Origin: Mobula birostris
Taxonomy: Eukaryota
NCBI RefSeq assembly: GCF_030028105.1
Contig: NC_092374.1
Coordinates: 156,636,432 to 156,700,431, forward strand
Direction of reading: 5' to 3'
Length of the DNA: 64,000 nt
A program made the position numbers and the translations under genes. This document shows positions 8,181-62,199 of this stretch, piece by piece. The notes beneath the pieces are model-generated. The model searched no databases. It was not told where the DNA came from and worked only from the letters and a program-made list of their open reading frames with translations. Numbering within the stretch: position 1 is the first letter of the stretch; the number at the start of each line of letters is the position of its first letter.

Positions 8181-9105
8181 CGGTATAACTGGATGGGTAG
8201 GCTGGGCTTGTTAGCCTTGGTTGGCAGCCAGCCTGAGAGAAGGACAACTCTGACTCCAAACCCGGGCAGGTGGGGCTCGGTAGCCTTGTCACTCCTATGA
8301 CCCAAGGACATCGCTGTTACCGTCCCAGCTTGCTAGGCTATGGCAGATGATCCCTGGGTGTAAAGGGTGGGGCCAGTACCGTGCACATTGTACTCCACCT
8401 AAAATACCATTGCGCAGGCCGAAGGACATGCCCACGTCAACGACCATCCTCCCCAACCGTTCATCAAGCCCTGCAGCGATGGGAAAGGGGCGAAAACGGC
8501 AGGTGGAAGATGACGCTGGAAGCCGCAGTTCTGATCCTGCATGCAGGCGGTTCAGGTGTGTGGGTTGTCTGATGTTGACCCCGGAGACGAAGATATCATT
8601 CGGCAGCACCCTGAACGACCAAACAGCCTTCTCTAGGGACAGCACTGCTTGCTCCACACAGAGAGGGGCCTAGGAAAGGTGGCCTAACTAAAGCCCGTTT
8701 CCATTTCCTCCAGTTGGCTAGCCGCAGTCAACTGGCATTCTCAAATCTGGTCGGACAACAACAAAAAAGAAAAGGTGCACACCTGCCTCACAAGGAGTGC
8801 AAGGACTAAAGCTCGCATGCTGGAACGTCAGAACCATGCTCGATTCAGCGGACAGTGGTCACCCAGAACGACACTCCGCTCTAGTTGCGCATGAACTTTC
8901 AAGACTGAATGTCGACATCGCTGCTCTCAGTGAAGTCCGCTTCCCAGAGGAAGGCAACCTTCAAGAACATGGCGCCGGCTACACTCTCTACTGGTCGGGC
9001 AAGCCAGAGACTGAGAGATACCTTTCTGACATTGGCTTTATGGTCAGGAACTCCATTGCCTCCAAGCTTGAAAAATTGCCAACGGGTCACTCCGACCGCA
9101 TCACC
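7958..9105 (+). mobile_element. RTE-clade LINE: 5' UTR plus start of the APE endonuclease, 3' part missing
   Basis: ORF 8797..9117 LKLACWNVRTML...ELSRLNVDIAALSEVRF...GAGYTLYWSGK is a typical RTE endonuclease N-terminus. The RTE-type UTR motif GTTGGCAGCCAGCCTGAGAGAAGGACAACTCTG lies at ~8220. Confidence 0.88.
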
Positions 9106-10359
9106 AAGTTAGAGTGAAAAGCTTTTGTTTTGCATGCCAGTCAGAAAGATCATGCCACACATAATTACACTGATGTACTAAGAAGAATACAGAATGCTGA
9201 AATGATGTTGCAGTTATAGAGAAAGGGCAGTCTAGGTAGACGAATAAAGTGCAAGGGCCACGATGAGGTAAATTGAGAGATCAAGTATTCGAGAGATCAT
9301 CATTCATCACAGGAATCGTTCAGTCAAGAATTTGATAGCAGCAGGATATAAGCTGCGCTGAAGTTTGGTGTTTTGTGCCCTCTCTTGGGGTATCTGCTTC
9401 TCATTTGGAGAGGGACGAAGGGAGATTGACCAGAGTGGGAGGGGTCCTTTACAGTGTTTGCTATATTCCCAAGGCGGAGAATAAAAATACTTCAGAAATA
9501 CCGTATTCTTTATTTATTATTTAAAAATATTGGAGTGGGAATGACATAGACAATTAATGTAGTGGTTGATTTGAAGTTCAGATCATTCTTGTGCACTGAA
9601 TAGAAATCTTCTGTGATACTATCATCCATCCAGCACATGTCCTCCCTGTTGTAGAGAGGACCACATCATGAGCACTGAATAGGAACACTAACACGAAAGG
9701 AATATAGGTAACTGCTGTTTCACCTGAAAGAAAAGTTGGGGCCCAAATCATGGTAAAAGGGCAACCATGCAGCTCTTGCAGTTGGGTGTGAACATGTCCT
9801 GGGATAGCGAGTAGGTGTGAATTCTTGGGTACAGAATTTTTGGTTCAGTTTGTCAGGGTGAAAGGGAAAGAGGGGGGAAGAAGTGTCCGGTAGTGACAAC
9901 ATGGTGGAGATGTCGGAAATTTCAGGATCCATTAAACAGGGAGTCTGGTGAAGTGAGAAGTACGATGGGGTGGACCTGTCTAGTTCTGACAGTGGATCAC
10001 AGAAGAAGAAAGGGAGAGGCCAGAAGTGTCTGCTCCATTTCCTGCACTGATATATGAACACTGACTTCACAAATTCAGCTTAATCATGGTTTCCAGGTAT
10101 GTTTGCTCATTGAATTAAACACCCCAGCATTCAGCACTGTCAGTCCTGTGGTTTCTAGAGAAGCCTCCCAATGCTGCTTTGTTTCCGTGTGAGCTGTGGA
10201 ATGCCAACTAAGGAGGAATTGACTTTTATGCTCTAACACAATTATTTATGCGGGTTGTAGGAATTGAGGTACTGAAACATCGTGCTTTAAACACATGCAT
10301 GTGTATGTGAGAGTAAGTGTTTAATATTCTATATAAAGGACAGAAATTCTTTTAGGTTG

Positions 10360-12450: not shown

Positions 12451-15400
12451 TGCACAGTGGAGCGAGAACCGTATCACAGTGGAGCCAGAGACCGGGGTTC
12501 AAATCTGACCTTGGGCCCAGTCTGCATGGAGATTGCCCATTCTTCATGCGACCACCTGAATTTCCCCTGGGTGCTCCGGTCTCCTGGCAAACCCCGAAAA
12601 TGTGAGGATTAGTCAGCTGATTGGCCACTGTTTATTCCCCTTGTAAATGCATGGGGAGTGGGGAGTGGAATCTGGGGTTTTGATGCATGGGGAGTGGGGT
12701 GTGGAATCTGGGGTATCGATGCACGGGGAGGGGGGTGTGGAATCTGCGGTTCTGATGCCCGGGGAGTGGGGTGTGGAATCTGGGGTATCGATGCACGGGG
12801 AGGGGGGTGTGGAATCTGGGGTTCTGATGCCCGGGGAGTGGGGTGTTCAATCTGGGGTTCTGATGCACAGGGAGTGGGGTGTGGAAACTGGGGTTTTGAT
12901 GCACGAGGAGTGGGGTGTGGAATCTGGGGTATCGTTGCACGGGGATTTGGGTGTGGAATCTGGGGTATCGATGCACGGGGAGGGGGGTGTTGAACCTGGG
13001 GTCTTGATGCACGGTGAGTGGGGTGTGGGATCTGGGGTTTTGATGCACGGGGAGTGGGGTGTGGAATCTGGGGTTTTGATGCACGGGGAGGGGGGTGTGG
13101 GATCTGGGGTATCGATGCACGGGGAGTGGGGTGTGGAATCTGGGGTCTTGATGCACGAGGAGGGGGTTTGGAATCTGGGGTTTTGATGCACAGGGAGTGG
13201 GGGGTGTAGAATCTGGGGTTTTGATGCACGGGGAGGGGGGTGTGGGATCTGGGGTATTGATGCCCAGGTAGTGGGGTGTGGAATCTGGGGTTTTGATGCA
13301 CGGGGAGTGGGGTGTGGAATCTGGGGTTTTGATGCCCAGCAGTGGGGTGTGGAATCTGGGGTATCGTTGCACGGGGAGTGGGTGTGGAATCTGGGATATT
13401 GATGCACAGGGAGTGGGGTGTGGAATCTGGGGTTCTGATGCTCGGGGAGTTGGGTGTGGAATCTGGGGTTTTGATGCACGGGGAGTGGGGTGTGGAATCT
13501 GGGGTTTTGATGCACGGGGAGTGGGGTGTGGAATCTGGGGTTTTGATGCACGGGGAGTGGGGTGTGGAATCTGGGGTATCGTTGCACGGGGCGGGGGGTG
13601 TGGAATCTGGGGTTCTGATGCCCGGGGAGTGGGGTGTGGAATCTGGGGTTTTGATGCACGGGGAGTGGGGTGTGGAATCTGGGGTATTGATGCCCAGGTA
13701 GTGGGGTGTGGAATCTGGGGTATCGTTGCACGGGGAGTGGGTGTGGAATCTGGGATATTGATGCACAGGGAGTGGGGTGTGGAATCTGGGGTTTTGATGC
13801 ACGGGGAGTGGGGTGTGGGATCTGGGGTATTGATGCCCAGGTAGTGGGGTGTGGAATCTGGGGTATCGTTGCACGGGGAGTGGGTGTGGAATCTGGGATA
13901 TTGATGCACAGGGAGTGGGGTGTGGAATCTGGGGTTCTGATGCCCGGGGAGTGGGGTGTGGAATCTGGGGTTTTGATGCCCAGGTAGTGGGGTGTGGAAT
14001 CTGGGGTATCGTTGCACGGGGAGTGGGGTGTGGAATCTGGGGTTTTGATGCACGGGGAGTGGGGTGTGGAATCTGGGGTTTTGATGCCCAGGTAGTGGGG
14101 TGTGGAATCTGGGGTCTTGATGCACGGGGAGTGGGGTGTGGAATCTGGGGTATCGTTGCACGGGGAGGGGGGTGTGGAATCTGGGGTTCTGATGCCCGGG
14201 GAGTGGGGTATGGAATCTGGGGTTTTGATGCACGGGGAGTGGGGTGTGGAATATGGGGTATCGTTGCACGGGGAGTGGGGTGTTCAATCTGGGGTTTTGA
14301 TGCACGGCAAGTGGGGTGTGGAATCTGGGGTTCTGTTGCACGAGGAGTGGGGTTTGGGATCTGGGGTATCGATGCATGGGGATTTGGGTGTGGAATCTGT
14401 GGTATCGATGCATGGGGAGTGGGGTGTGGGATCTGGGATTTTGATGCACGGGGAGTGGGGTGTGGAATCTGGGGTATCGATGCACGGGGAGTGGGGTGTG
14501 GAATGTGAGGTATCGTTGCACAGGGAGTGGGGTGAGGAATCTGGGGTATCATTGCACAGGGAGTGGGGTGTGGAATCTGGGGTTTTGATGCACAGGGAAG
14601 GGGCTGTGGAATCTGGGGTATTGATGCCCGGGGAGTGGGGTGTGGGATCTGGGGTTCTGTTGCACGAGGAGTGGGGTTTGGAATCTGGGGTATCGTTGCA
14701 CGGGGATTTGGGTGTGGAATCTGGGGTATCGATGCATGGGGAGTGGGGTGTGAAATCTGGGGTTTTGATGCATGGGAAGTGAGGTGTGGAATCTGGGGTT
14801 CTGATGCCCGGGGAGTGGGGTGTTCAATCTGGGGTTTTGATGCACGGGGAGGGGGGTGTGGAATCTGGGGTTTTGATGCCCGGGGAGGGGGGTGTGGAAT
14901 CTGGGGTTTTGATGCACAGGGAGTGGGGTGTGGAATCTGGGGTTCCGATTCCTGGGGAGTTGGGTGTGGAATCTGGGGTATCGATGCACGGTGAGTGGGG
15001 TGTGGAATCTGGGGTATCGATGCACGGGGAGTGGGGTGTGGAATCTGGGGTTTTGATGCCCGGGGAGTGGGGTGTGGAATCTGGGGTTCTGATGCCTGGG
15101 GAGTGGGGTGTTGAATCTGGGGTTTTGATGCACGGGGAGGGGGGTGTGGAATCTGGGGTATTGATGCCCGGGGAGGGGGGTGTGGAATCTGGGGTTTTGA
15201 TGCACGGCGAGTGGGGTGTGGAATCTGGGGTATCGATGCACGGGGAGTAGGGTGTGGAATCTGGGGTATCGATGCACGGGGAGTGGGGTGTGGAATCTGG
15301 GGTATCGTTGCACAGGGAGTGGGGTGTGGAATCTGGGGTATCGATGCATGGGGAGTGGGGTGTGGAATCTGGGGTATCGATGCACAGGGAGTGGGGTGTG

Positions 15401-16430
15401 GAATCTGGGGTATCGTTGCACAGGGAGTGGGGTGTGGAATCTGGGGTATCGTTGCACGGGGAGTGGGGTGTGGAATGTGGGGTATCGTTGCACAGGGAGT
15501 GGGGTGTGGGATCTGGGGTTTTGATGCATGGGGAGTGGGGTGTGGAATCTGGGGTTTTGATGCACGGGGAGCGGGGTGTGGAATCTGGGGTATCGATGCA
15601 CAGGGAGTGGGGTGTGGAATCTGGGGTATTGATGCCCGGGGAGTGGGGTGTGGAATCTGGGGTATCGATGCATGGGGAGTGGGGTGTGGAATCTGGGGTA
15701 TCGATGCACGGGGCGGGGGGTGTGGAATCTGGGGTATCGTTGCACGGGGAGTGGGGTGTGGAATCTGGGGTATCGATGCATGGGGAGTGGGGTGTGGGAT
15801 CTGGGGTTTTGATGCACGGGGAGGGGGGTGTGGAATCTGGGGTATCGTTGCACGGCGAGTGGGGTGTGGAATCTGGGGTATTGACGCCCAGGGAGTGGGG
15901 TGTGGGATCTGGGGTTCTGATTCCCAGGGAGGGGGTGTGGAATCTGGGGTATCGATGCATGGGGAGTGGGGTGTGGAATCTGGGGTATCGATGCACGGGG
16001 CGGGGGGTGTGGAATCTGGGGTATCGTTGCACGGGGAGTGGGGTGTGGAATCTGGGGTATCGATGCATGGGGAGTGGGGTGTGGGATCTGGGGTTTTGAT
16101 GCACGGGGAGGGGGGTGTGGAATCTGGGGTATCGTTGCACGGCGAGTGGGGTGTGGAATCTGGGGTATTGACGCCCAGGGAGTGGGGTGTGGGATCTGGG
16201 GTTCTGATTCCCAGGGAGGGGGGTGTGGAATCTGGGGTTTTGATGCACGGGAAGTGGGGTGTGTGATCTGGGATATCGATGCACGGGGAGAGGGGTGTGG
16301 AATCTGGGGTTTTGATGAAAATGTGAAGCGAGAAAAACTATTGAGATTGAAACTAGATTAGTGTAAATGGATGAATGGTTCGCATGGAACCAGTGGGTAG
16401 AAGGGGATACTTCCCTGCTATATGTCTCTG
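12451..16430 (+). mobile_element. SINE split by an internal minisatellite expansion
   Basis: SINE head and core at 12451-12646 (GGGGTTCAAATC, GGGTGCTCCGGTCTCC); CR1-like SINE tail at 16318-16430 (...CAGTGGGTAGAAGGGG...CTGCTATATGTCTCT). Confidence 0.7.
12647..16317. repeat. G-rich 36-bp minisatellite, ~100 variant units
   Basis: Unit GATGCACGGGGAGTGGGGTGTGGAATCTGGGGTTTT with recurring variants; accounts for all the long ORFs between 12609 and 16361. Confidence 0.97.
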
Positions 16431-24842: not shown

Positions 24843-26286
24843 TGTCACAATGGGGTGCTGGGAACAGACCCAAATGCAAGACACAGACACAGAAGTACAA
24901 GGAACAGGACTTGACTAGAGTAGGGACGTCACAAGATTCAGACCATTAGCAGGGACAAGAACGCAGACTTGGGCTATGGAAAGCAAGACCAGGACAAGAA
25001 ACCATGGACTAGGAACAAGGCTTGGACTCCAAGCCCGAGACTGGACAAGGACCCAGAACCTGGGTATTGCCTCGGGCTTGGACCGCAGAACCAGGCAAGG
25101 ACATGACATGGCTTCAGGACAGGATGTGGCTGGGGTCTAGAGGCCTGAGCTTGGCTTGAGCCTGGGGTCTTGGGTCCTTGGAGCTTGGCTTGAGACTGGG
25201 GTCTTGGGTCCTTGGAGCTTGGCTGCGGGATCCTCGAGGCTTGGGTTCTTGGAGCTTGGCTGCGGGATCCTCGAGGCTTGGGTTCTTGGAGCTTGGCTGC
25301 GGGATCCTCGAGGCTTGGGTTCTTGGAGCTTGGCTGCGGGATCCTCGAGGCTTGGGTTCTTGGAGCTTGGCTGCGGGATCCTCGAGGCTTGGGTTCTTGG
25401 AGCTTGGCTGCGGGATCCTCGAGGCTTGGGTTCTTGGAGCTTGGCTGAGGGATCCTCGAGGCTTGGGTTCTTGGAGTTCAGAGACAGACAGGGAACCGAA
25501 CATCAACGTAGAGCCAGGACTTATCCTTCAACAAGCTGGGACTCATCTTTAACACAACACTAACATGAGACAAGACAGAACATAGACATACAGCCAGGAC
25601 TCAACTTCATCTCCACACCAAGGTGGGACAGGTCCCTCCATCAAGTAATGGCAGAACAGCCAGACTTACCCAACAGAGGTGAGGACAAGACAATCCCCCC
25701 ACAGGGCAACAGCAGAACAGCCTGACTTACCCCACAGAGGCAAGGACAAGACAAGGCAGATCCTCCCACAGGGCAACAGCAAAACAGCCTGGCTTACCCC
25801 ATGGAGGCAAGGACAAGTAGAGACAAACACCAAAGAACAACAGACAGTTCCATCTCTGCTCCGGGGAAGCTCCAAGTCTCAGTTCGGCCAGCAACCTCAG
25901 CAGGCTACAGAAACAGTCAGATCCCTACCTAACTCAGAGTAGTTGGCAGCCACTCAGCTGGCCCAGGAAACAGCCAAATCCATACCACAAAGACAGCTCC
26001 GACTACCTACAGCAAGGCTCCATGAAGCAATGGTTCTCCAACACAGCCTAAGGATGACAAGTGGCCACTCTAGCCTTCCACCAGCAGATTGCTCCCAGGG
26101 GAACTGACAAGACAAACCAGCAGCTGACACTCAACCCCAAGGCTACTTATATTCCAAACCCCAAGATGGGAATCAGGTGCCTATGCTTAACTCAATCAAA
26201 CGAGGGACAGCTGGAAGACCCAGAGTCCTGAGTCCACGGACCAGACCGTGAACCGGAATGCAGACTTCACAGACTGGACCATGACA
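24843..26286 (-). mobile_element. Solo LTR (Gypsy-like) inserted in a SINE
   Basis: TGTCA...TGACA termini and a 5-bp TSD ATACC (24838-24842, 26287-26291). The minus strand has TATAAG near 26150 and ends TGCATTTGGGTC...GTGACA. Confidence 0.85.
25208..25476. repeat. 37-bp tandem repeat (~7 copies) inside the solo LTR
   Basis: Unit GGGTTCTTGGAGCTTGGCTGCGGGATCCTCGAGGCTT; GGATCC recurs every 37 bp (25228, 25265, ...). Confidence 0.95.
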
Positions 26287-26461
26287 ATACCCTGAGCTGG
26301 ACTAGAGGTGCGCTAACCATTACAATCTGCAGTATGATCAATGTTAACTGCTAGTTCTAAAGCTATGTGAAATTGGCTTAGCCAGCTGTCAAAACCGTCA
26401 AGGGATAGAAATTGTTCTGAATACTTGAAAACCTTGTAAAAATAGCTGTTAAAATCCATAA

Positions 26462-26852
26462 ACAACAGGAATTCTGCAGATGCTGGAAATTCAAGCAACA
26501 CACATCAAAGTTGCTGGTGAACACAGCAGGCCAGGCAGCATCTGTAGGAAGAGGTGCAGTCGACGTTTCAGGCCGAGACCCTTCGTCAGGACTCAGGCAG
26601 CATCTGTAGGAAGAGGTGCAGTCGACGTTTCAGGCCGAGACCCTTCGTCAGGACTCAGGCAGCATCTGTAGGAAGAGGTGCAGTCGACCTTGCAGGCCGA
26701 GACCCTTCGTCAGGACTCAGGCAGCATCTGTAGGAAGAGGTGCAGTCGACGTTTCAGGCCGAGACCCTTCGTCTCGGCCTGAAACGTCGACTGCACCTCT
26801 TCCTACAGATGCTGCCTGGCCTGCTGCGTTCATTAGCAACTTTGATGTGTGT
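26462..26852 (-). mobile_element. Penelope pLTR-derived element: four 62-bp tandem units plus an inverted copy, hammerhead-bearing
   Basis: Units start at 26532, 26594, 26656 and 26718; inverted arm ~26771-26853; 15-bp TSD TGTTAAAATCCATAA (26447-26461, 26853-26867). Confidence 0.9.
26558..26655 (-). ncRNA. Two adjacent intact minimal hammerhead ribozyme motifs
   Basis: The minus strand reads AGUC-CUGACGA-AGGGUCUCGGCCU-GAAAC-GUC-GACU at 26558-26593 and 26620-26655: core boxes, stem I AGUC/GACU and a palindromic ACGU stem III. Confidence 0.8.
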
Positions 26853-26959
26853 TGTTAAAATCCATAATTTTTCTCTAAAAATTAAAAGGATTTAAAAGCA
26901 CAAAATCAATTAGGTAAATTCAAGCAACTTCAAAAAAAATGAAAATACACTTACATCAT

Positions 26960-27360
26960 GGCCTTTCTTTTCCATTGAAATTAATGGGGGGAGCTCACTT
27001 GGCCAGTTCTAATCACATTCCCCAGTATAACTGGTGGTCAACTGTTATAATTCTGTGGCATATTGATGGATTCAATAACAAATTCAACGTTGGTATGCAT
27101 TTGGAGAAACGGCAATGAATAGGCATGATTGAGTTTTTGACCTTCACATTTTCGTAAGCATTCACAGAAATCACAAACTTGCTGACAGGTGGTAAATGCC
27201 ATCAGTTACACACAGGACTATCAACAGTAAATCAGTAACATACATGTTACCATATTTCTCCAGAACACCCAGGTTGCAAGCCATTAGAGGCAACTGTGCA
27301 ATGCAACACTGGATGATATTTTATTCTTATATAGTCAAGGAATCAATAACAGATGAGATT
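26960..27360 (-). pseudogene. PKD1-like relic: PKD repeats
   Basis: PVSKFVISVNAYENVKVKNS resembles the G-x-[YF]-x-[VI]-x-V-x-A-x-N-x-V motif of PKD domains; multiple stops. Confidence 0.45.
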
Positions 27361-28459
27361 ACCTATTATAGTGTTTTATAATTGATTAGCTATGCAAGTG
27401 GAAAATTATACGAAAAGCCAATATGTACAGCATTTTTTAAAAGGAATTTATATTAATCTGAACTGGTAGACGGATTGGAAGAGACGAATGGAATTTCATT
27501 CATTTAGAGAACAAAGGAAACAGAAACTCGAAACCTGAATGAGTGGAAGAGCTAGAAACCCTGATTATGTTTACAAAGTAAACGAAAATATATGACAAAA
27601 CAGCCGATGCCAAAATCTGAAGTAAAAACAGAGAAGGGGGAAAATTATTCAGTAGATCAGACAGCATCTGTGGAAAAGGGAACAGAGTTATGCCAAATAT
27701 CATTATTCAGAGCTGGGGAAAAGAGAAAAACTAATTCTTTTTAAGTTGCAGGTAGGGATGAAAAGCACAAAATGAATATATGTGACAGGTAAGACAATGC
27801 TTGTCATAGTTATAAATTGTAAAGTTCCTCCAGTCAGTGGGTCGATAACAGCATCTTGATGGTAGTAACACAATCAAAGTCATGTAATATGTTGTAAACA
27901 TTTAGAAAAGTACTTAGGGTGTGCTCAGAGAGGTGTAACCAGCAGGGTGACAGCCTTAGTGCTGATGGGTGAGATTAGGCTGAGTAATTCTACATTGATT
28001 GGCACAGACTCAGCACAGCAACTTTCTGTGTTATAAATTTTGTATGACTCTGTGTTGATCATTGTACTTTCTGATCAGTGTTCATGATTTCCAATTTAAC
28101 AATGAAAATGAACAAGTGGCACAGTAGCGTAGCAGTTGGCGTACCACTTTACAACACCAACAATCTCATTCAATTCCCACCACTGTCCATAAGGATGTTC
28201 TCCCTATAACAATACGGGTTTCCTCTGTGTGCTCCGGTTTCCTCCCACATTCCAAAGACATACAGTTTAGAGTCAGTAAATTGGGTGTATGCCACGTTGG
28301 CACCGGAAGCAGGCTGACACTTGCGAGCTGCCTGATCTTCACAATCTTCACCATCTTCAGACTGTGTTGTTTGTTAATGCAAATGACGCATTTCACTGTA
28401 TGTTTTGATGTGACAAATAAAGCTCTGACAAGTTGCCAAAAATGGCTTAATTAATTTTC

Positions 28460-33965: not shown

Positions 33966-34250
33966 AAAAAGACTCTATGTTTTACGTGAGCATGTGACTG
34001 AGCAACAAATGACTATGTTTCTAGATTTATATTATGCTGAAATATGTAAATTGTTACTGTAATGAGCATCCAGAGGCAGACGCATACCTTCAGACAGCAA
34101 GATAGTTCTTTTCAGATCACCTCCAGTACAGCAGTGAGTATCAGATAGCTGAGTGATACATCTACTCTTCACATTGATGTCAAGCTTTTTAAACCATTTA
34201 TTTTCTTAATTTTCAATAGTTTAATTTGGAAAGAAATGAAAATCATAGTG

Positions 34251-34381
34251 TCCCGATGAAGTGTCTCAGCCCAAAATGTCAACTGTACTCTTTTCCATAG
34301 ATGCTGCCTGGCCTGCTGAGTTCCTCCAGCATTTTGTGTGTGTTGCTTGGATTTCCAGCATCAGCAGATTTTCTCTTGTTT
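34251..34381 (+). mobile_element. Solo Penelope pLTR with degenerate hammerhead
   Basis: CCGATGA-AGTGTCTCAGCCC-AAAATGTC (mutated core); 9-bp TSD ATCATAGTG (34242-34250, 34382-34390). Confidence 0.75.
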
Positions 34382-34603
34382 ATCATAGTGCCCTTGCGGT
34401 TAGAAAAAGAAAACAAAACTAATTCATGGCAACTAAGAGATAAATGAGAATAATTGAAGTTTGGCTTAACTTAAAAAACCTTTTTTCATTGAAACAGTAT
34501 GAATACAGTGATATCTTGCTATTGAGTTTCCTGTAAGAGATTACTAAAAGTGATTGCAAGAAAATTGTTCCATCAACTATTGAAAGCTACAAGGAATAAT
34601 TTA

Positions 34604-36711
34604 AACACGAGGAAATCTGTAGATGCTGGAATTTCAAGCAACACACATAAAAGTTGCTTGTGAACACAACAGGCCAGGCAGTATCTCTAGGAAGAGGTAC
34701 AGTTGACGTTTCAGGCTGAGACCCTTCGTCAGGACTAACTGAAAGAAGAGCTAGTAAGAGATTTGAAAGTGGGAGGGGGAGGGGGAGATTCAAAATGATA
34801 GGAGAAGACAGGAGGGGGAGGGATGGAGCCAAGAGCTGGAAAGTTGATAGGCAAAGGTGATATGAGAGGATCATGGGACAGGAGGCCCAGGGAGAAAGAA
34901 AGGGGGGGGGAAGCCCAGAGGATGGGCAAGGACTATAGTGAGAGGAACAGAGAGAGCGGAAAAAGGAGAGAGAGAAAAAAAATTAATAATAATAAATAAA
35001 TAAATAAATAAATAACGGATGGGGTACGAAGGGGAGGTGGGGCATTAACGGAAGTTAGAGAAGTTAATGTTCATGCCATCAGGTTGGTGGCTATCCAGAC
35101 GGAATATAAGGTGTTGTTCCTCCAACCTGAGTGTGGCTTCATCTTGAAAGTAGAGGAGGCCGTGAATAGACATATCAGAATGGGAATGGGACGTGGAATT
35201 AAGATGTGTGGCCACTGGGAGATCCTGCTTTCTCTGGCGGACAGAGCGTTGGTGTTCAGCGAAACGATCTCCCAGCCTGCGTCGGGTCTCACCAATATAT
35301 AGAAGGCCACATCGGGAGCACCGGACGCAGTATATCACCCCAGCTGACTCACAGGTGAAGTGTTGCCTCACCTGGAAGGACTGTCTGGGACCCTGAATGG
35401 TGGTGAGGGAGGAAGTGTAAGGGCATGTGTAGCACTTGTTCCGCTTACAAGGATAAGTGCCGGGAGGGAGATCGATGGGAAAGGATGTGGGGGACGAATG
35501 GATAAAGGATTCGCATAGGGAGCGATCCCTGCAGAAAGCAGAAAGGGGGGTGGAGGGAAAGATGTGTTTAGTGGTGGGATCCCATTGGAGGTGGCGGAAG
35601 TTACGGAGAATAATATGTTGGACCCGGAGGCTGGTGGGGTGGTAGGTGAGGACAAGAGGAACCCTATCCCTAGTGGGGTGGCGGGAGGATGGGATGAGAG
35701 CAGAAATGTGTGAAATGGGAGAGATGCATTTGAGAGCAGAGTTGATGGTAGAGGAAGGGAAGCCCTTTTCTTTAAAAAAGGAGGACATCTCCTTCGTCCT
35801 GGAATGAAAAGCCTCATCCTGAGAGCAGATGCAGCAGAGACAGAGGAACTGCAAGAAGGGGATGACATTTTTGCAAGAGACAGGGTGAGAAGAGGAATAG
35901 TCCAGATAGCTTTGAGAGTCAGTAGGCTTATCGTAGACATCAGTAGATAAGCTGTCTCCAGAGATAGAGACAGAAAGATCAAGAAAGGGGAGGGAGGTGT
36001 CGAAAATGGACCAGGTAAATTTGAGGGCAGGGTGAAAGTTAGAGGCAAAGGTAATGAAGTCAACGAGCTCAGCATGCGTTCAGGAAGCAGCACCAATGCA
36101 GTCATCAATGTTGCGAAGGAAAAGTGGGGGAGAGATACCAGTATAGGCTTGGAACATGAACTGTTCCACAAAGCCAACAAAAAGGCAGGCATAGCTGGGA
36201 CCCATACAGGTGCCCATGGCTACACCTTTAATTTGGAGGAAATGGGAGGAGCCAGAGGAGAAATTATTAATAGTAAGGACTAATTCCGCTAGACGGAGCA
36301 GAGTGGTGGTAGAGGGGAACTGGTTAGGTCTAGAATCCAAAAAGAAGCGGGCAGCTTTGAGACCTTCCTGGTGGGGGATGGAAGTATATAGGGACTGGAC
36401 GTCCATGGTGAAAATAAAGCAGTGGGGGCCAGGGAACTTAAAATCATCGAAAAAATTAACAATGTGCAAAGTGTCATGAGCATAGGTAGGAAGGGATTGA
36501 ACGGGGGGGGGGGGGATAAAACAGTGTCGAGGTATGCAGAAATGAGTTCGGTAGGAGCAAGCTGAGACAATGGGTCTACCTGGACAGGCAGGTTTGTGGA
36601 TCTTGGGTAGGAGGTAGAAATGGGAAGCGTGGGGTTTGGGAACTATAAGGTTGGTAGCAGTTGATGGTAGATCCCCTGCTACCTGGACAGGCAGGTTTGT
36701 GGTTCTACGGG
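34604..36711 (-). mobile_element. Penelope-like retroelement (RT + GIY-YIG), 5'-truncated and frameshifted
   Basis: FTMDVQSLYTSIPH, GVAMGTCMGPSYACLF, RNIDD, and GIY-YIG motif GVIYCVRCSRCGLLYIGETRRRLGDRFAEH. The pLTR has a hammerhead at 34701-34736; 13-bp TSD AAGGAATAATTTA (34591-34603, 36712-36724). Confidence 0.93.
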
Positions 36712-36857
36712 AAGGAATAATTTACACTTTTTAAAATAATGAAACAATTATTGGCATTCTCTTGTTTGGCATAACTATGAAGAGAAATTAGGTATTTGTA
36801 TATTCTAACAATTCTGTCTTCAAACACATGACTAAAAATAGCTGCAGAGGTCAAATA

Positions 36858-39037: not shown

Positions 39038-39978
39038 TTCTCTTTCTCCCTTTCTCTTCACCATTTACACCTCGGACTTCAACTACTGCACGGAGTCTTG
39101 TCATCTTCAGAAGTTTTCTGATGGCTCTGTCATAGTTGGATGCATCAGCAAGAGAGATGAGGCTGAGTACAGGGCTACGGTAGGAAACTTTGTCACATGG
39201 TGTGAGCAGAATTATCTGCAGCTTAATGTGAAAAAGACTAGGAGCTGGTGGTCTCCTTAGACCTGAGGAGAGCTAAGGTACCGGTGACCCCTGTTTCCAT
39301 CCAGGGGGTCAGTGTGGACATGGTGGAGGATTACAAATACCTGGGGATATGAATCGGCAATAAACTGGACTGGTCAAAGAAAACTGAGGCTGTCTACAAG
39401 AAGGATCAGAGCCGTCTCTATTTCCTGAGGAGACTGAGGTCCTTTAACATCTGCCGTATGATGCTGAGGATGTTCTACGAGTCTGTGGTGGCCAGTGCTA
39501 CCATGTTTGCTGTTGTGTGCTGGGGCAGCAGGCTGAGGGTGGCAGACACCAACAGAATCAACAAACTCATTCGTAAGGCCAGTGATGTTGTGGGGATGGA
39601 TCTGGACTCTCTCATGGTGGTGTCTGAAAAGAGGATGCTGTCTAAGTTGCATGCCATCTTGGTCATTGTCTCCCATCCACTACATAATGTACTGGGTGGG
39701 CACAGGAGTACATTCAACCAGCGAATCATTCCACCGAGATGCAGCACAGAGCGTCATAGGAAGTCATTCCTGCCTGTGGCCATCAAACTTTACAACTCTT
39801 CCCTTGGAGGGTCAGACATCCTGAGCCAACAGGCTGGTCCTGGACTTATTTCATAATCTACTGGCATAATTTACATATTACTATTTAACTATTTATGGTT
39901 CTATTACTATTTATTATTTATGGAGCAACTGTAACAAAAATCGATTTCCCCCGGGATTAATAAAGTATGACTATGACT
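39038..39978 (+). mobile_element. Rex1/Babar-clade LINE, 5'-truncated, nested in CR1
   Basis: LSPFLFTIYTSDF...KFSD, MFYESVVASA; tail AATAAAGTATGACTATGAC. Same family as 56954-57833. Confidence 0.9.
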
Positions 39979-41309
39979 TAATGGTCTGAGGGTGGATAAA
40001 TCTCCTGGACCTGATGGAATTCACCCTCTGGTTCTGAAGGAAGTAGCTGGAGAGATTGCGGAGGCATTAATGATGATCTTTCAAGAATCGATAGATTCTG
40101 GCGTTGTACCAGATGACTGGAAAATTGCAAATGTTACTCCACTATTTAAGAAGGGTGGGAGGCAGCAGAAAGGAAACTATAGACCTGTTAGCCTGACATC
40201 AATGGTTGGGAAGTTGTTGGAGTCAATTGTTAGGGATGAGATTACGGAGTACCTGGAGGCACATGACAATGTAGGCCAAAGCCAGCATGGCTTCCTGAAA
40301 GGAAATTCCTACCTGACAAACCTACCGCAATTCTTTGAGTAAATTACAAGTAGGGTAGACAAAGAGAAGCAGTAGACATGGTGTACTTGGATTTTCAGAA
40401 GGCCTTTGACAAGGTGCCGCACATGAGGCTGCTTAGCAAGATAGGAGCCCATGGAATTACAGGGAAGTTTCTAGCACAGGTGGAGCATTGGCTGGTCAGA
40501 AGAAAACAGAGAGTGGGAATAAAGGGATCGTATTCTGGCTGGCTGCCAGTTACCAGTGAAGTTCCACAGGGGTCGATGTTGGGGCCACTGCTTTTTACAA
40601 CGTATATCAATGACTTGGACTATGGTATTAATGGATTTGTGGCTAAATTTGCTGATGATATAAAGATAGGTGGAGGAACGGGTAGTTTTGAGGATACATA
40701 GAGCCTGCAGAGAGACCTAGATAGTTTAGGAGAATGGGCAAAGAAGTGGCAAATGAAATACAATGTTGGATAGTGTATGGTCATGCACTTTGCTGGAAGA
40801 AATAAATAGGTAGACTATTATTTATATGGGGTCAGAATTCAAAATACAGAGATGCAAAGGGACTTGGGAGTCATTGTGCAGGGTACCCTAAAGGTTAACC
40901 TCCAGGTTGAGTCGGTTATGAAGAAGGCGAAAGCAATGTTGGCATTCATTTCTCGGGGTATAGAATATAAGAGCAGGGATGTGATGTTGAGGCTCTACAA
41001 GGCACTCATGAGACCACACTTGTAGTATTGTGTGTAGTTTTGGGCTCCTTATTTTAGAAAGGATATACTGACATTGGAGAGGGTTCAGAGAAGATTCCAG
41101 GGATGAAAGGGTTACTGTATGAGGAATGTCTGGCAGCTCTTGGGCTGTATTCCCTGCAGTTCAGGAGAATGAGGGGGGATCTCAAAGAAACATTCCAAAC
41201 GTTAAAAGGCCTGAACAGATTAGATATGGCAAAGTTATTTTCCATGGTAGGGGATTCTAGGACAAAGAGGGCACAATTTCTGGATTGAAGGACATCCTTT
41301 TAGAACTGA

Positions 41310-41539
41310 CACTCACAACACTCTGGAGAAACTCAGCAGGTCGGGCAGCATCTGGGGAAAAGATCGGTTGACATTTCAGGCCGGAACCCTTCGTCAGGAC
41401 TCTTTGTGGGTCCTGACGAAGGGTTCCGGCCCAAAACATCGACCGATCTTTTCCACGGATGCTGCTCGATCTGCTGAGTTCCTCCAGCGTGTTGTGAGTG
41501 TTGCTTTGACCCCAGCATCTGCAGATTATTTTGTGATTA
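41310..41539. mobile_element. Palindromic (inverted) Penelope pLTR pair with two hammerhead cores
   Basis: Inverted arms around ~41400-41410, each containing CTGACGAAGGGTTCCGGCC; 13-bp TSD CTTTTAGAACTGA (41297-41309, 41540-41552). Confidence 0.88.
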
Positions 41540-43169
41540 CTTTTAGAACTGAGATGTGGAGAAATAACTTTAGTCAGAGGGTGGTAAATCTGTGGAATTT
41601 GTTGCCATGAGCGGCTGTGAAGGCCAAGTCATTGGGTGTATTTAAGGCAGAGATAGATAGGTTCTTGATTAGCCATGGTATCAAGGGGTATGGGGTGAAA
41701 GCAGGGGAGTGGAGATGACTGGAAGAATTGGATCAGCCCATGACTGAATGGTGGAGCAGACTTGATGGGCCGAATGGCCTACTTCTGCTCCTATATCTTA
41801 TGGTCTTATGGTTTTATCAGTGCATTAAGTATGGAAGTTGGGAGGTTATGTTGCAATAATATAGGACCCTAGTGAGGCCAGACTTGGAGTATTGTGTTCA
41901 TTGTGGTCACTCTGCAATAGGAAAGATATTATTAAACTGAAAAGAGAGCAGAAGAGATTTACAGTGTGCCTTCAGGACTCAAGAGACTGAGTTATAGGGA
42001 GAGGTTGGTACTTTTCTCATTGGAAAGTAGAAGACTGAGTGGTGATCACTCTGAGGTATATAAAATCACAAGAGCATAAATAGAATGAACAGTTTTTCCC
42101 CCAGAGATGGGGTATCAAAACTAGAGAACATAGATTTTGGGTGACAAGGGAAAGATTTAACAGGAACTTAAGGGACAACTTTTTACATAGATGGTGACAT
42201 ATACTGTATATTGAGTGAGCTGCTGGAGTAAATGGTTGAGTAAGGAACAAAAACAACTTTGAAATGACATTTGGACAGGTACGTAGATAGGAAAGGTTTA
42301 GAAGATATGGGCCAATCATGGGCAACTGGGACTCGCTTGGGCAAAAGGGTCTATTTCCCTGTTGTATGACTCAATGAGATAAGTATTGGGTGTTCAAAGT
42401 TGTCAAAGCTCTCTACCATACGAGATTTCCAAAATGTACTGTCAATAAGTCCACATAATGGACTCATTTGCAATGATTGTTTACAAGTGGTACTATAGGG
42501 ATGTGCCGGCTTGTTGGCTCCATTATTCTAAGACTCGTGAGAGCAGGGAAACTTGTACTGGCATAAGTGGATATCTTGGTCAGCATGGAGAAGTTGGGCC
42601 GAAGGGTCTGTCTGCCTATTATATTACTCAATGACTCCATGATGTTGATGGCCAGAGATCAACCCACCATTTCACCTGCCACAGCAACCCCTCCACAACT
42701 CCAATTACACTCCAGTTCCCACCCCTTTGAGGTACCTAGGACCAATACCACTCAGGCAAGAGTCCTAACTACACTCATCAGCTGCCTATGAAAGTGCAGT
42801 AGATCTCAATTTACTAAAATGAGTAGTGAGACCCAGTTTTAGGTGAGCTCAGGGCCAAGAGCTCCAGCATTGCCTGAGACTTTGTACCTACCTATACTGG
42901 GACCAAATACAGGTTAGAATAAACTCTGACTCACTGCTTTGAAAGCACATAGTAATGCACAGGTCAGAAATAAATCAGAGTATGTTGGAAATAGCATCCA
43001 TAAAGAGTGAAAAAGAATTCACGCATCAGCTCAATTAATCAATGCCCTTCTGATGAAAGACATGGGCATTACTTCTTTTATCTTGGATGTTAGCTTGCTA
43101 AGTATATCCAACACTTTCTGCTTTGGTCCAGAATTTCGTCAGCTGCAGAATTTTGCTTTTTGGTTAAAA

Positions 43170-45043: not shown

Positions 45044-45496
45044 CGACCAGCGGTAGTAACTGCAGGAGGTAGCGCTCGACCAGCGGTAGCACCTGCAGGA
45101 GGTAGCGCTCGACCAGCGGTAGCACCTGCAGGAGGTAGCGCTCGACCAGCGGTAGCACCTGCAGGAGGTAGCGCTCGACCAGCGGTAGCACCTGCAGGAG
45201 GTAGCGCTCGACCAGCGGTAGCACCTGCAGGAGGTAGCGCTCGACCAGCGGTAGCACCTGCAGGAGGTAGCGCTCGACCAGCGGTAGCACCTGCAGGAGG
45301 TAGCGCGCGACCAGCGGTAGCACCTGCAGGAGGTAGCGCGCGACCAGCGGTAGCACCTGCAGGAGGTAGCGGGCGACCAGCGGTAGCACCTGCAGGAGGT
45401 AGCGCTCGACCAGCGGTAGCACCTGCAGGAGGTAGCGCTCGACCAGCGGTAGCACCTGCAGGAGGTAGCGCTCGACCAGCGGTAGCACCTGCAGGA
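45044..45496. repeat. 33-bp minisatellite (~13.7 copies) inside a Rex-type LINE 3' relic
   Basis: Unit CGACCAGCGGTAGCACCTGCAGGAGGTAGCGCT; the flanks (44985-45043, 45497-45640) are contiguous LINE ORF2 end. Confidence 0.95.
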
Positions 45497-54144: not shown

Positions 54145-54649
54145 GTATCTTCTGTCAGGGTAGCCTCCAACCTGATGGCATGAACATTGACTTCTCTAAC
54201 TTCCGTTAATGCCCCTCCTCCCATTCTTACCCCATCCCTTATTTATTTATTATTTTTTATTTTTTCCCTTTTTTCTCTCTCTGTCCCTCTCACAATAACT
54301 CCTTGCCTGCTCTCCATCTTCCTCTGGCGCTCCCTTCCCCCTTTCTTTCTCCCTAGGCCTCCCGTCCCATGATCCTCTCCCTTCTCCAGCCTCGTATCCC
54401 CTTTGCCAATCTTTCCAGCTCCTGGCTCCATCCCTCCCCCTCCTGTCTTCTCCTATCATTCTGGATCTCCCCCTCCCCCTCCCACTTCCAAATCTCTTAC
54501 TATCTCTTCTTTCAGTTAGTCCTGACGAAGGGCCTCGGTCCGAAACATCGACTGTGCTTCTTCCTATTGATGCTGTCTTGCCTGCTATGTTCCACTAGCA
54601 TTTTGTGTGTGTTGCTTGAATTTCCGGCATCTGCAGATTTCCTCGTGTT
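54145..54649 (+). mobile_element. Penelope 3' end with pLTR hammerhead
   Basis: QPDGMNIDFSNFR* as at 35045; AGTC-CTGACGA-AGGGCCTCGGTCC-GAAAC-ATC-GACT at 54518-54553. Confidence 0.88.
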
Positions 54650-55524: not shown

Positions 55525-58500
55525 TGCTCATTACAGCCGGGGACTTTAACCAGGCCAACCTCAGAAAGGCGCTGCCAAAGTTATACCAACATGTCTCCTG
55601 CCCCACTAGAGGCCCTAATATACTTGACCACTGAAACACAGCTGTCAAGGATGCCTACCATTCCGTCCCACGACCTCACTTCGGAAAATCGGACCATCAG
55701 GCCGTACTCCTCCTCCCGGCTTACAAACAGAAACTGAAGCGGGAGGTCACGGTGTCAAAAGTGGTGTCACGTTGGACGGAGGAAACAGATGAGGTCCTCC
55801 GTGACTGCTTTGAATCGGTGGACTGGTTAGTATTCAATGACTCGGCAGCTAACCTCGATGAGTATACCTCAGCTGTCACGGAGTTTATCTGGAAATGCAT
55901 AGAGGACTGTGTGCCTCGCAAAACAATCCGGGTATTCCCTAACTGGAAACCTTGGATGAATAATGAGGTCAAGTCCCTTTTGAAGGCTAGAGCTGCGGCT
56001 TTTAGGTCCAGGGATACCAGTCGCTACACGGAATCCAGGCATGAACTCTGGAAAGCCATTAAGGGCGCCAAGAGGTAATATCGAGCCAAGTTGGAAGCCC
56101 AGGCTAACCAGAGGGATGCTGGTAGACTATGGCAGGATCTAAATGAAATCACTGGGCGCAAAGAAAAGGCTGGGAATATCAATAACTGTGGTGCTTCTCT
56201 TCCTGACGAACTTAATGTATTCTACGCAAGATTCGAACAGAAGAGGAGTGTCCCGCTCCCTCCGGATGAACCGGACCTGGTGGCATCGAGATTCGTCGTC
56301 ACCGAGGAGGATGTTAGAAGGGCCTTCCTGAAGATAAATCCAAGGAAGGCGATGAGGCCAGATGGCATCCCGGGACGGGTTCTCCAGGCCTGTGCAAGCG
56401 AGCTAGCTGGAGTGTTTGCTGACATCTTCAACTGCTCCTTGCTTCAGTCTAAGATCCCGTCGTGTTTTAAGAAGGCAACGATAATCCTAGTGCCGAAGAA
56501 GAGCAAGGTGGCATGCCTGAATGACTATCGACCTGTGGCTCTGACATCAATTGCTATGAAGTGCTTCGAGTGATTGGTTATGGCACACATCAATCACAGC
56601 CTACCGGTCAACCTCGATGCTTTGCAATTCGCCTACCGGAGCAACAGGTCAATGGCAGGTGCCAACTCTCTGGCCTTACATTCCTCCTTAGAACACCTGG
56701 AGAATAAAGATGCATGTGTAAGGCTCCTTTTCATTGACTACAGCTCTGCCTTTAATACTATCATTTCAAATAAACCGATTCCTAAGCTCCGGAACCTGGG
56801 CCTTAGCACTCAGATCTGCAGCTGGATCTTCAACTTCCTCACAGACAGGACCCAGGTTGTAAAAATAGGGGACAAACTCTCCTCTACGATCACTCTGAGC
56901 ACCGGTGCCCCACAAGGCTGTGTACTCAGACCCCTGCTGTACTCACTGTACACATAGTCATAGTCATACTTTATTGATCCTGAGGGAAATTGATTTTCGT
57001 TACAGTTGCCCCAACCAAGAATAGAGTATAAATATAGCAATAGAAAACCATAAATAATTAAATAGTAATATGTAAATGATACCAGGAAATAAGTCTAGGA
57101 CCAGCCTATTGGCTCAGGGTGTCTGACCCTCCAAGGGAGGAGCTGTAAAGTTTGATGGCCACAGGCAGGAATGACTTCCTATGACGCTCTGTGTTGCATC
57201 TCAGTGAAATGAGTCTCTTGCTGAATGTACTCCTGTGCCCAACCAGTACATTATGTAGTGGATGGGAGACATTGTCCAAGATGGCATGCAACTTGGACAG
57301 CATCCTCTTTTCAGACATCACCATCAGAGAGTCCAGTTCCATCCCCACAACATCACTGGCCTTACAAATGAGTTTGTTGATTCTGCTGGTGTCTGCTACC
57401 CTCAGCTTGCTGCCCCAGCACACAACAGCAAACATGATAGCACTGGCCACCACAGACTCGTAGAGCATCCTCAGCATCGTCTGGCAGATGTTAAAGGACC
57501 TCAGTCTCCTCAGGAAATAGAGACGGCTCTGACCCTTCTTGTAGACAGCCTCAGTGTTCTTTGACCAGTCCAGTTTGTTGTCAATTCGTATCCCCAGGTA
57601 TCTGTAATCCTCCACCATGTCCACACTAACCCCCTGGATGGAAACAGGGGTCACCGGTGCCTTAGCCCTCCTCAGGTCCACCGCCAGTTCCTTAGTCTTT
57701 TTCACATTAAGCTGCAGATAATTCTGCTCACACCATGTGACAAAGCTTCCTACCGTAGCCCTGTACTCAGCCTCATCTCCCTTGCTGATGCATCCAACTA
57801 TGGCAGGGTCATCAGAAAACTTCATCAGAAAACCCATGATTGTGTAGCCAAGTTTCCATCGAACTCAATATATAAGTTTGCTGATGACACCACAATTATA
57901 GGCCATATCTTGGGTAATGATGAGTTTGAGTACAGAGAGGAGATTAAGAACCTGGTGGCATGGTGCGAAGACAATAACCTATCCCTCAACAACAGCAAGA
58001 CGAAGGAATTGGTTGTTGACTTCAGAAGGAGTAGCGGACCACATGACCCCATTTACATCGGTGGTGCGCAAGTGGAACAGGTCAAAAGCTTTAAGTTCCT
58101 CAGGGTCAATATCACAAATGACCTGGCTTGGTCCAACCAAGCAGAGTCCACTGCCAAGAAGGCCTACCAGCCTCTTTACTTCCTGAGAAAGCTATAGAAA
58201 TTTGGCCTGTCCTCTCAAACCCTCACTAAGTTTTATAGATGCACCGTAGAAAGCATTCTTGTAGGGTGCATCACAACCTGGTATGGAAGTTGTCCTGTCC
58301 AAGACCGGAAGAAGCTGCAGAAAATCGTGAACACAGCCCAGCACATCACATAAACCAATCTTCCATCCTTGGACTCATTTCACACCGCACGCTGTCGGAG
58401 CAATGCTGCCAGGATAATATAGGTCACGACCCAACCAGCCAACACACTTTTCGTCCCTCTTCCCTCTGGGAGAAGGCTCAGGAGCTTGAAGACTCATACG

Positions 58501-59999: not shown

Positions 60000-61318
60000 A
60001 GAAACCATAGAAACCATAGAAAAACTACAGCACAGAAACAGGCCTTTCGGCCCTTCTTGGCTGTGCCGAACCATTTCCTGCCTAGTCCCACTGACCTGCA
60101 CAGGGACCATATCCCTCCATCCCATCCATGTATCTGTCCAATTTATTCTTAAATATTAAAAAAGAACCTGCATTTACCACCTCGTCTGGCAGCTCATTCC
60201 ATACTCCCACCACTCTCTGTGTGAAGAAGCGCCCCCTAATGTTCCCTTTAAACTTTCCCCCCCTCACCCTTAACCCATGTCCTCTGGTTTTTTTCTCCCC
60301 TTGCCTCAATGGAAAAAGCCTGCTTGCATTCACTGTCTATACCCATCATAATTTTATATAGCTCAATCAAATCTCCCCTCATTCTTCTACACTCCAGGGA
60401 ATAAAGTACTAACCTATTCAACCTTTCTCTGTAACTGAGTTTCTCAAGTCCCGGCAACATTCTTGTAAACCTTCTCTGCACTCTTTCAACCTTATTAATA
60501 TCCTTCCTGTAATCTGGGGACCAAAACTGAACACAATACTCCAGATTCGGCCTCACCAATGCCTTATACAACCTCATCATAACATTCCAGCTCTTATAAT
60601 CAATACTTTGATTAACAAAGGCCAATGTACCAAAAGCTCTCTTTACGACCCTATCTACCTGTGACGCCACCTTCAGGGAATTTTGTATCTGTATTCCCAG
60701 ATCCCTCCGTTCTACTGCACTCCTCAGTGCCTTACCATTTACCCTGTATGTTCTACCTTGGTTTGTCCTTCCAAAGTGCAATACCTCACACTTGTCTGTA
60801 TTAAACTCCATCTGCCATTTTTCAGCCCATTTTTCCAGCTGGTCCAAGTCCCTCTGCAGGCTCTGAAAACCTTCCTCACTGTCTACTACACCTCCAATCT
60901 TTGTATCATCAGCAAATTTGCTGATCCAATTTACCACATTATCATCCAGATCATTGATATAGATGACAAATAACAATGGACCCAGCACTGATCCCTGTGG
61001 CACACCACTAGTCACAGGCCTCCACTCTGAGAAGCAATTCTCTACTACCACTCTTTGGCTTCTTCCATTGAGCCAATGTCTCATCCAATTTACCACCTCT
61101 CTATGTATACCTAGCGACTGAATTTTCCTCACTAACCTCCCATGCGGGACCTTGTCAAAAGCCTTACTGAAATCCGTGTAGACAACATCCACTGCCTTCC
61201 CTTCATCCACTTTCCTGGTAACCTTCTTGAAAAACTCCAATAGATTGGTCAAACATGACCTACCACACACAAAGCCATGTTGACTCTCCCTAATAAGTCC
61301 CTGTCTCTCCAAATACTT
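60000..61318 (-). mobile_element. Relatively young 5'-truncated CR1 LINE
   Basis: Open 354-aa RT stretch (QHGFVCGRSCLTNL, DFSKAFDKVPH, GVPQGSVLGP, KFADD); minus-strand (TTTCTATGG)n tail. Confidence 0.95.
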
Positions 61319-62199
61319 GTAAGTGTGTGGTGAAGTAAATGTTATAAAGTGTCAGAGCAAGGTCTATGGATGGAACTAGTGTTTGCTGCTCTAACAGAGA
61401 GCCAGGATGAACATGAAAGGCCAAATGGCCTTCTTCTGAGCAGTTGTTGTTCTCAGAGTCAGAATTAAGTTCATATAAGTGAGATGATCAGGGTACGAAA
61501 GAAGCACAAGCTGCATCATTCAACTTATTTTGGATGCCTGAATTTTTTTTCAGGATATGGTAAAGGAAAACGGAGGGGTTTGCTGGATTAATCAAGAAAA
61601 TTCATGCAAGATTCAGTGGGAGATTAAAAAATAAATGCAGGAAATAGCTTGAGGTAAATAGTAGCAAGTTCACTGTAACAGACTTGAATCTTCTTGCTCA
61701 ATTCAGTAATCAATGCTCCTTTCTTTAAAGTTTATTTAAAGCAGATGATAGATCAACTCATTAAAAATAAGAATTTTATGTCTGCACCTGAAATAATCTA
61801 GTTACTATTCAAGAGTTTAGCTATTTGAATTACAAAGGACATTGCAATTATTTTGTTTCTAATGGTTATAGTTTTATTGAATCTATACTGTTTACAGTGC
61901 AAACATGGTTAAATTAGTTATGGAGCTAACCTGAACTTGGCACGTTAGACCACAATATGTTTACATAGTTTCAGCTATTAGCTTCCATTTTGCTCATCAA
62001 AGCCACAAGTAAACATAAAGATGCAAATTTCAACTCCGCGCACATCAGATCATTACTGGCAATGATGCTAAGCAGTTAAGTGGTAAGTACTTGTGAGACG
62101 CGTGGTGGTGGAGACAGTAATCGTGTTTAGAAAAAAAATAAGGCAGTAGCTTTTAAGTGGTTAAACCACAAACTCAGGACTAGCTCTTGGTTAAAGAAC

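Follow-up and report, generated by a model that had tools for sequence, protein, structure and literature searches.

The stretch at 26447-26867 of the 64-kb window (the whole of the DNA that was analysed) is a single element, bounded at each end by a target site duplication (TSD). The 391 bp between the TSDs all correspond to the 3' pseudo-LTR of a Penelope-like element (PLE), arranged as two arms in head-to-head orientation, and one of these arms contains a tandem array of 62-bp units with two intact minimal hammerhead motifs. Insertion of the PLE end primed from two strands, with local tandem expansion of one segment, is the best reading of this arrangement and is probably correct. The sites in organisms B and C are empty and the insertion therefore postdates the split between organisms A and B.

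Structure of the insertion and its hammerheads

The TSD, TGTTAAAATCCATAA, is an exact 15-bp repeat at 26447-26461 and 26853-26867. The sequence has just two occurrences in the window, and the first-pass annotation of this DNA was right to place a 15-bp duplication around the whole element. Both copies border the site that is empty in the orthologous sequences, where one copy is present (run X5). The left arm starts with a 35-bp tail on the minus strand (26462-26496), which is the extreme 3' end of the pseudo-LTR and has no counterpart in the inverted arm. Between this tail and the array is an interval of non-repeated pseudo-LTR (26497-26531, minus strand) that is colinear with the PLE 3' end at 34610-34736. 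In total, the sequence inside the TSDs has 70 bp of non-unit pseudo-LTR at its left end and 34 bp at its right end. The inversion centre (26766-26773) is made up of a 5-nt loop and a 3-nt overlap, GTC (26771-26773), that is common to both arms.

The second arm (26771-26852, plus strand) is inverted, 5'-truncated and tail-less, is without a hammerhead core, and has a downstream context that is parental and array-free. That an inverted arm closes the array had been seen before and is confirmed at these positions. Over 48 nt this arm is perfectly complementary (100%) to each of units 1, 2 and 4, and comparison with the left arm shows differences at 3 of 83 positions; within the 391 bp there are five internal differences, two of them in unit 3 and three between the arms. 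As a DNA hairpin the 48-bp palindrome is predicted to be stable (-66.9 kcal/mol). The first-pass annotation had also made the link to Penelope, which is right, although it overlooked that the element body between the TSDs is itself the 3' pseudo-LTR of a PLE. Identification as a MITE or another DNA transposon was rejected, as the 3' end of a retroelement, present twice, makes up the inverted repeats, and the outer ends are unequal.

The array was delimited by TRF at 26532-26773, with a period of 62, 3.9 copies and 97% matches. It consists of three full 62-bp units and a fourth of 56 bp, where four units of 62 bp had been annotated. Units 1 (26532-26593) and 2 (26594-26655) are identical and each has an intact minimal hammerhead on the minus strand, at 26593-26558 with a predicted cut after 26562 and at 26655-26620 with a predicted cut after 26624. 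Unit 3 (26656-26717, minus strand) has private changes at 26689 and 26692, the previously noted replacement of GAAAC by GCAAG, which disrupt the GAAA box and the stem III palindrome. Unit 4 (26718-26773, minus strand) is without the AGUC-CU of the hammerhead 5' end and keeps GACGA, which makes the annotated loss of CUGA at the inversion approximately right. Since units 1, 2 and 4 are identical and the changes in unit 3 are private, the units carry no signal of the order of duplication. The three array junctions are identical and in register. The unit boundary is the first base of stem I, and the whole ribozyme is thus contained in each unit.

The minus-strand sequence of units 1 and 2 is AGUC-CUGACGA-A-GGGU(CUCG)GCCU-GAA-ACGU-C^GACU. 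Sequence and descriptor scan agree that these are complete hammerheads, and the earlier description of them as minimal type I hammerheads of the Penelope kind, in which stem III is a loopless ACGU palindrome, stands. The minimal-hammerhead descriptor finds exactly two sites in the 64-kb window, units 1 and 2, and none in 100 random windows of matching dinucleotide make-up. Compared with the published consensus, the core, the unpaired base before stem II, the loopless palindromic stem III and stem I are all present. Stem II is short, with 4 bp of which two are G-U pairs, and the G10.1-C11.1 closing pair is absent, there being a G-U pair in its place; the closing-pair position is a C in three other arms of the window. 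This is not disqualifying, because the G-U closing variant also occurs in published families, and the part of the PMC4209133 supplement that was available gives it for several families of fish and frogs. The 36-nt motif has an MFE of -10 kcal/mol, which is not in the active fold and is no better than shuffles. Rfam gave no matches at gathering level in the 64-kb window, and in an E-value scan of 26300-27000 no hammerhead family was among the 10 sub-threshold matches. The miRNA matches in that interval were rejected, as they reflect the perfect hairpin and are all below the gathering score.

The parent family and the empty orthologous sites

A BLAST comparison of the left arm with the window identified the family five more times. 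The best match is 34610-34736 (91.3% over 127 bp), and the others are 54518-54643, 34250-34379 and a pair at 41330-41401 and 41410-41525. The best match lies in a decayed, 5'-truncated PLE of the same family on the minus strand (34602-36721), about 8 kb from the insertion. It has an RT part (36083-36721), a thumb/Zn-linker/GIY-YIG part (35048-36079) and a 3' pseudo-LTR with a hammerhead remnant (34602-34736), all on the minus strand. This copy can be taken to represent the family, and it is at most a candidate for the donor.

RT and EN motifs are readable on the minus strand of this PLE, and the hammerhead is on its sense strand. A default Pfam run on it gave no match; GIY-YIG (E=2.6e-4) and RVT_1 (E=0.019) match below threshold, both falling short of the curated cut-offs, and the best Atlas match is a GIY-YIG family cluster (0.97). 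There were no matches in a PDB sequence search with the RT part. A zinc-finger-like linker, CX2-5CxxC, is located at residues 211-219 of a 344-aa frame, before the endonuclease. Such a linker is reported as common to Neptune and Nematis in the available sections of PMC8557442, and it points to assignment to one or the other; the element is probably an endonuclease-bearing PLE of the Neptune type. Literature searches, including those for Penelope-like hammerheads in elasmobranchs and for MER6/Penelope in sharks, found no paper on this specific PLE family. To judge by this repeat family, the host would be a cartilaginous fish, probably a ray.

The other family members include an array-free, one-tailed head-to-head pair (41309-41527) with a 13-bp TSD and a solo arm (34250-34381) with a 9-bp TSD. 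These three arms end at, or within 1-2 bases of, stem I, which identifies this boundary as a truncation hot spot of the family. The pair (41297-41552) is of an older subfamily, has an 8-nt spacer and two decayed hammerhead cores, and is within LINE-like sequence. The solo pseudo-LTR (34242-34390), 5'-truncated at stem I, is tail to tail with the PLE at 34602. At 54146-54649 there is a 5'-truncated copy of the same PLE of about 500 bp, 80% to the 34.6-kb copy, in which the hammerhead has kept the G-C closing pair and has a CpG-type change in stem III. A pyrimidine tract, CAG/TAG and a possible branch motif are present directly before stem I at 34737-34762 and 54490-54517, in the manner of a 3' splice site. 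The intron of Drosophila virilis Penelope likewise ends at helix I, according to the text available of PMC4209133.

The public contigs of 4 of the 24 listed runs were compared with a 1.4-kb stretch around the insertion. For run X5, from a related species (organism B), record 23 joins 26446 directly to 26853 and has one TSD copy; this contig covers 26259-26446 followed by 26853-27400, with 18 other letters in 736 (2.4%). For run X9 (organism C), record 28 has 20 letters between 26425 and 26853, a spacing that fits the 21-bp flank without the insert. It is clear from an empty site with one TSD copy in two related species that the insertion is real and lineage-specific. The five internal differences in 391 bp are compatible with a young age, after the split of A and B.

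Run X1 (organism A) has both outer junctions with no differences, although X1 may be the source sample and so is not independent. It contains 0.88 of the sampled words, and among the contigs listed none spans the array. There are 54,263 contigs of X1 on the 1.4-kb stretch, a figure that is divided between the PLE family and the left-flank repeat and is not a copy number; it indicates that the PLE family is very abundant. Among the 15 joints listed of 180 in contigs, 12 connect the left arm to an inverted arm, with varied breakpoints, and inversions are thus routine in this family. Family contigs of run X19, for which the RNA type is a guess, extend over 26502-26593 with no depth on most flank bins and are uninformative on the locus. 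No RNA run was listed as containing the sequence, and contigs do not display RNA ends, strand or circles. A further high-copy repeat forms the left flank (26000-26286) and stops abruptly at 26286. One row for X5 is a joint of the go-back type, leading from 26589 to 26503 through three extra letters, at a depth of 209.6 compared to 6.9 for the single-copy flank contig, depth not being copy number. This joint suggests that a different head-to-tail pseudo-LTR repeat, of about 90 bp, is present elsewhere in the genome of organism B.

Origin of the array

The array junction, GGACT/CAGGCAGC, links a point in the middle of the pseudo-LTR with the base at which stem I begins. Microhomology with the parental contexts is absent, and the predicted cut is 30 nt away. 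The junction was not seen in any of the five other family arms of the window, and the multimer of 62-bp units is present at one locus within these 64 kb. Pattern searches for the junction in metagenome contigs, and for the family in metagenome and viral contigs, gave no match, but these collections contain no sequence of the family and such blanks are uninformative. Back-splicing was considered as the origin of the junction because both PLE copies have a pyrimidine tract and an AG before stem I. It was rejected, as the upstream side is without a GT donor and the junction retains the AG.

Under two-strand priming with local expansion, the locus would be a dead-on-arrival insertion of the 3' pseudo-LTR from an abundant endonuclease-bearing PLE. 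By analogy with PLE biochemistry, an AT-rich site would have been cut by the endonuclease on both strands, with an offset of 15 bp. Uncleaved element RNA would have been the template for cDNA primed by each 3' end, starting at one or the other of two sites that are 35 nt apart, and a join in the middle would have linked the two cDNA products. In vitro, the anole PLE protein cuts and extends both DNA strands, its cDNA starts at two sites bounding the tail, and unprocessed (uncleaved) RNA is its main insertion substrate (PMC11167929). More tentatively, a 62-bp segment, from an internal point to the usual 5' stop of the family at the first base of hammerhead stem I, may have been duplicated once at the locus. 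A template switch in cDNA synthesis or replication slippage in the long palindrome could be responsible for this. The duplicated segment would then have expanded as a minisatellite, and the final 6 bp of unit 4 would have been lost at the tip of the hairpin. The hammerheads would be passengers in this process; a weak in-cis cut by units 1 and 2 may be possible, in minus-strand read-through of the locus before the arm rearranges, and would be required by nothing.

Local slippage had been one of the options of the first-pass annotation and is favoured here, although this falls short of proof and the orthologous sites are empty rather than occupied by a single unit. Some observations tell against local expansion. 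The three identical junctions are equally explained by a source RNA that was already arrayed, and a first duplication by simple microhomology slippage would not typically leave a blunt junction. The explanation of the boundary at stem I rests on a truncation hot spot seen in only three other arms, and the junction is unique as far as the 64-kb window goes. An argument that the array followed the inversion, taken from the array-free state of the inverted arm, was dropped, as an independently primed arm ending inside unit 1 looks alike.

The main rival, possible though on balance doubtful, is that the array formed earlier at a source locus and was copied as linear, uncleaved RNA by the PLE enzyme, making it part of a small, multi-locus, non-autonomous subfamily. 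The first cDNA would then comprise the tail, the flank and 3.9 units, and the second the flank and 48 nt of unit 1 before a stop. Three identical junctions and an array-free inverted arm are explained by this without extra steps, and the units equal the arm over 48 nt with no differences. Non-autonomous PLE derivatives with multicopy head-to-tail insertions have been described (in the available sections of PMC8557442), and the X5 go-back joint, the depth of which is not a copy number, hints at arrayed pieces elsewhere. However, the junction is absent from five of five other family arms in the window, a second locus was not found within the 64 kb, and the cDNA would have to read through four cleavage sites, so that little ribozyme activity is implied.

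Far less probable is the origin by dimeric self-cleavage, in which a 62-nt monomer is released, forms a circle and is reverse transcribed by the rolling-circle route, as a minimal retrozyme. In the modelled structure, units 1 and 2 can be drawn as a nested double hammerhead with both cuts 62 nt apart, and the in-cis dimer of adjacent copies proposed in the first-pass annotation would be topologically possible. During minus-strand transcription the arm is predicted to pair first with the defective unit 4 (P=1.0 for transcript ends from 26718 to 26532), so that units 2 and 1 would be left free for a time. The locus also shows the features that serve as operational retrozyme criteria in the available text of Li, Clavereau and Pollet 2026 (bioRxiv 10.64898/2026.07.22.740005): a tandem by TRF and two consecutive complete hammerheads, each with an MFE below -5 kcal/mol. 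These were applied here to the TRF and descriptor results and not through the pipeline of those authors.

Against the circle, cutting and religation at GUC^GACU restores the parental sequence, 30 nt from the new junction; a circle therefore cannot create the junction and a prior array is needed. The insertion starts and ends in linear, non-unit pseudo-LTR that is colinear with the parent element, whereas a circle-templated insert is expected to consist of unit sequence. The circular MFE (-8.7 kcal/mol) is no better than that of 300 shuffles (-10.3 +/- 3.3 kcal/mol). It is for these reasons, a junction 30 nt off the cut, linear ends and a circle that folds no better than shuffles, that the earlier suggestion of a rolling-circle origin from a mini-circle is poorly supported. 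The double-hammerhead fold is 21.7 kcal/mol above the ensemble, compared to 23.0 +/- 4.4 for shuffled linkers (n=200) and 15.9 +/- 1.3, about 6 lower, for idealised stems (n=200), with no sign of tuning. Such a penalty is weak evidence, and of the absence of tuning only, because the model penalises all such folds. It was rejected as proof of inactivity, since the controls put about 16 kcal/mol down to the model itself.

In the full-length minus-strand RNA, the inverted arm is predicted to pair with unit 1 at P of at least 0.96, which would leave one intact unit. This equilibrium pairing with an intact unit bears out, within the folding model, the earlier proposal that the arm can sequester one unit. 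Published minimal dimers and trimers cut poorly in the data available from PMC4209133, one of nine Xenopus dimers cut in the available text of bioRxiv 10.64898/2026.07.22.740005, and the anole PLE hammerhead required protein to cut (PMC11167929). Equally improbable is that the 62-nt unit is a newborn minimal retrozyme, the circle of which was taken up by template switching in PLE cDNA synthesis and so seeded the junction elsewhere, with dimeric cleavage, perhaps aided by the PLE protein, made possible when a first duplication brought two minimal hammerheads together in cis. If this were true, it would be a retrozyme caught at birth and dated by the empty sites, and far smaller than the circles of 150-450 nt shown so far.

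That the unit number or the changes in unit 3 are an assembly or sequencing artefact of the long palindrome, within a real insertion, is the least probable explanation: tandem and inverted PLE insertions are known to trouble assemblies (PMC8557442, in its available sections) and no listed contig of X1 spans the array despite its 0.88 of the sampled words, but such high-copy repeats interrupt short-read contigs in any case, the three junctions agree in sequence and register, and X1, which may be the source sample, has the outer junctions with no differences.

Comparison with published elements

Head-to-head pseudo-LTR arms with one 30-40-bp tail and a TSD are a described form of PLE insertion, in what was available of PMC8557442 and PMC3846280, and the 30-40-bp tail is also described in PMC11167929. 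The locus is like the insertions of EN+ PLE (Craig 2021, Arkhipova 2013 and Frangieh 2024, from their available sections) in having a pseudo-LTR-only insert, an inverted and truncated head-to-head copy, a one-sided tail of 35 bp, a TSD, an AT-rich target and a hammerhead on the sense strand. It is unlike them in that one arm has a 62-bp internal segment present 3.9 times. Its TSD is 15 bp, compared to 8-10 bp in the rotifer EN+ PLE examples of those sections.

The minimal hammerheads of PLE pseudo-LTRs, and the dimer model for them, were described by Cervera and de la Pena 2014 (PMC4209133). As far as the available text of that paper goes, units 1 and 2 share with these metazoan type I hammerheads the CUGANGA core, the extra unpaired A before stem II, the GAAA, the loopless palindromic C-G, the UC end of the cleavage triplet and a 4-bp stem I. 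They differ from the consensus given there in a short stem II with G-U instead of G-C closing, and from the hammerheads themselves in that the tandem is natural, with a spacing of 62 nt.

Pseudo-LTR-derived tandem hammerhead arrays have been reported by Li et al. 2026 across vertebrates, including one chondrichthyan; the units measure 51-972 bp, and the authors propose that inserted PLE ends were amplified locally. In the terms of the available text, the array is like these retrozymes in being tandem, with two consecutive complete hammerheads, a PLE pseudo-LTR origin and a unit within the size range. It is unlike them in being near the short end of that range, inside an inverted insertion and known from only one locus. 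With the retrozymes of Cervera and de la Pena 2020 (PMC7229834) it shares type I hammerheads in tandem, from which a monomer could be released. Those retrozymes, in the sections available, have canonical ribozymes, monomers of 150-450 bp, a GC content under 45% and highly self-paired circRNAs, whereas here the ribozyme is minimal, the unit is 62 bp with 58% GC, and the predicted circle is unstructured. The locus is thus outside that strict description of a retrozyme in ribozyme type, size, GC and self-pairing. The available parts of PMC9977147, PMC2837043 and PMC544870 contained nothing decisive for the locus.

Tandem hammerhead arrays from PLE pseudo-LTRs are, going by the available published text, already in print, and the locus is ordinary in kind, one more insertion of a very abundant PLE. 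Its value is modest, as a clean and datable case of a Penelope pseudo-LTR becoming a hammerhead-bearing minisatellite, the route that has been proposed for vertebrate retrozymes. With two intact units and one mutated unit it also offers a natural in-cis substrate for the question of whether minimal PLE hammerheads are dimer-cutting or protein-dependent. In addition, the locus can be classed as a retrozyme by a criterion of 'two consecutive hammerheads' although its anatomy suggests a linear origin.

There are four other, unrelated arrays in the window, with periods of 33-67 bp, which is in keeping with a local minisatellite expansion at the insertion. These minisatellites are located at 12647-16317 (period 36, 102 copies), 25169-25476 (period 37), 25651-25817 (period 67/33) and 45044-45496 (period 33). 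Decayed LINE fragments of several kinds, with putative RT-like or endonuclease-like frames, are found at 55635-57864, 60251-61351, 39353-40339 and 8722-9114.
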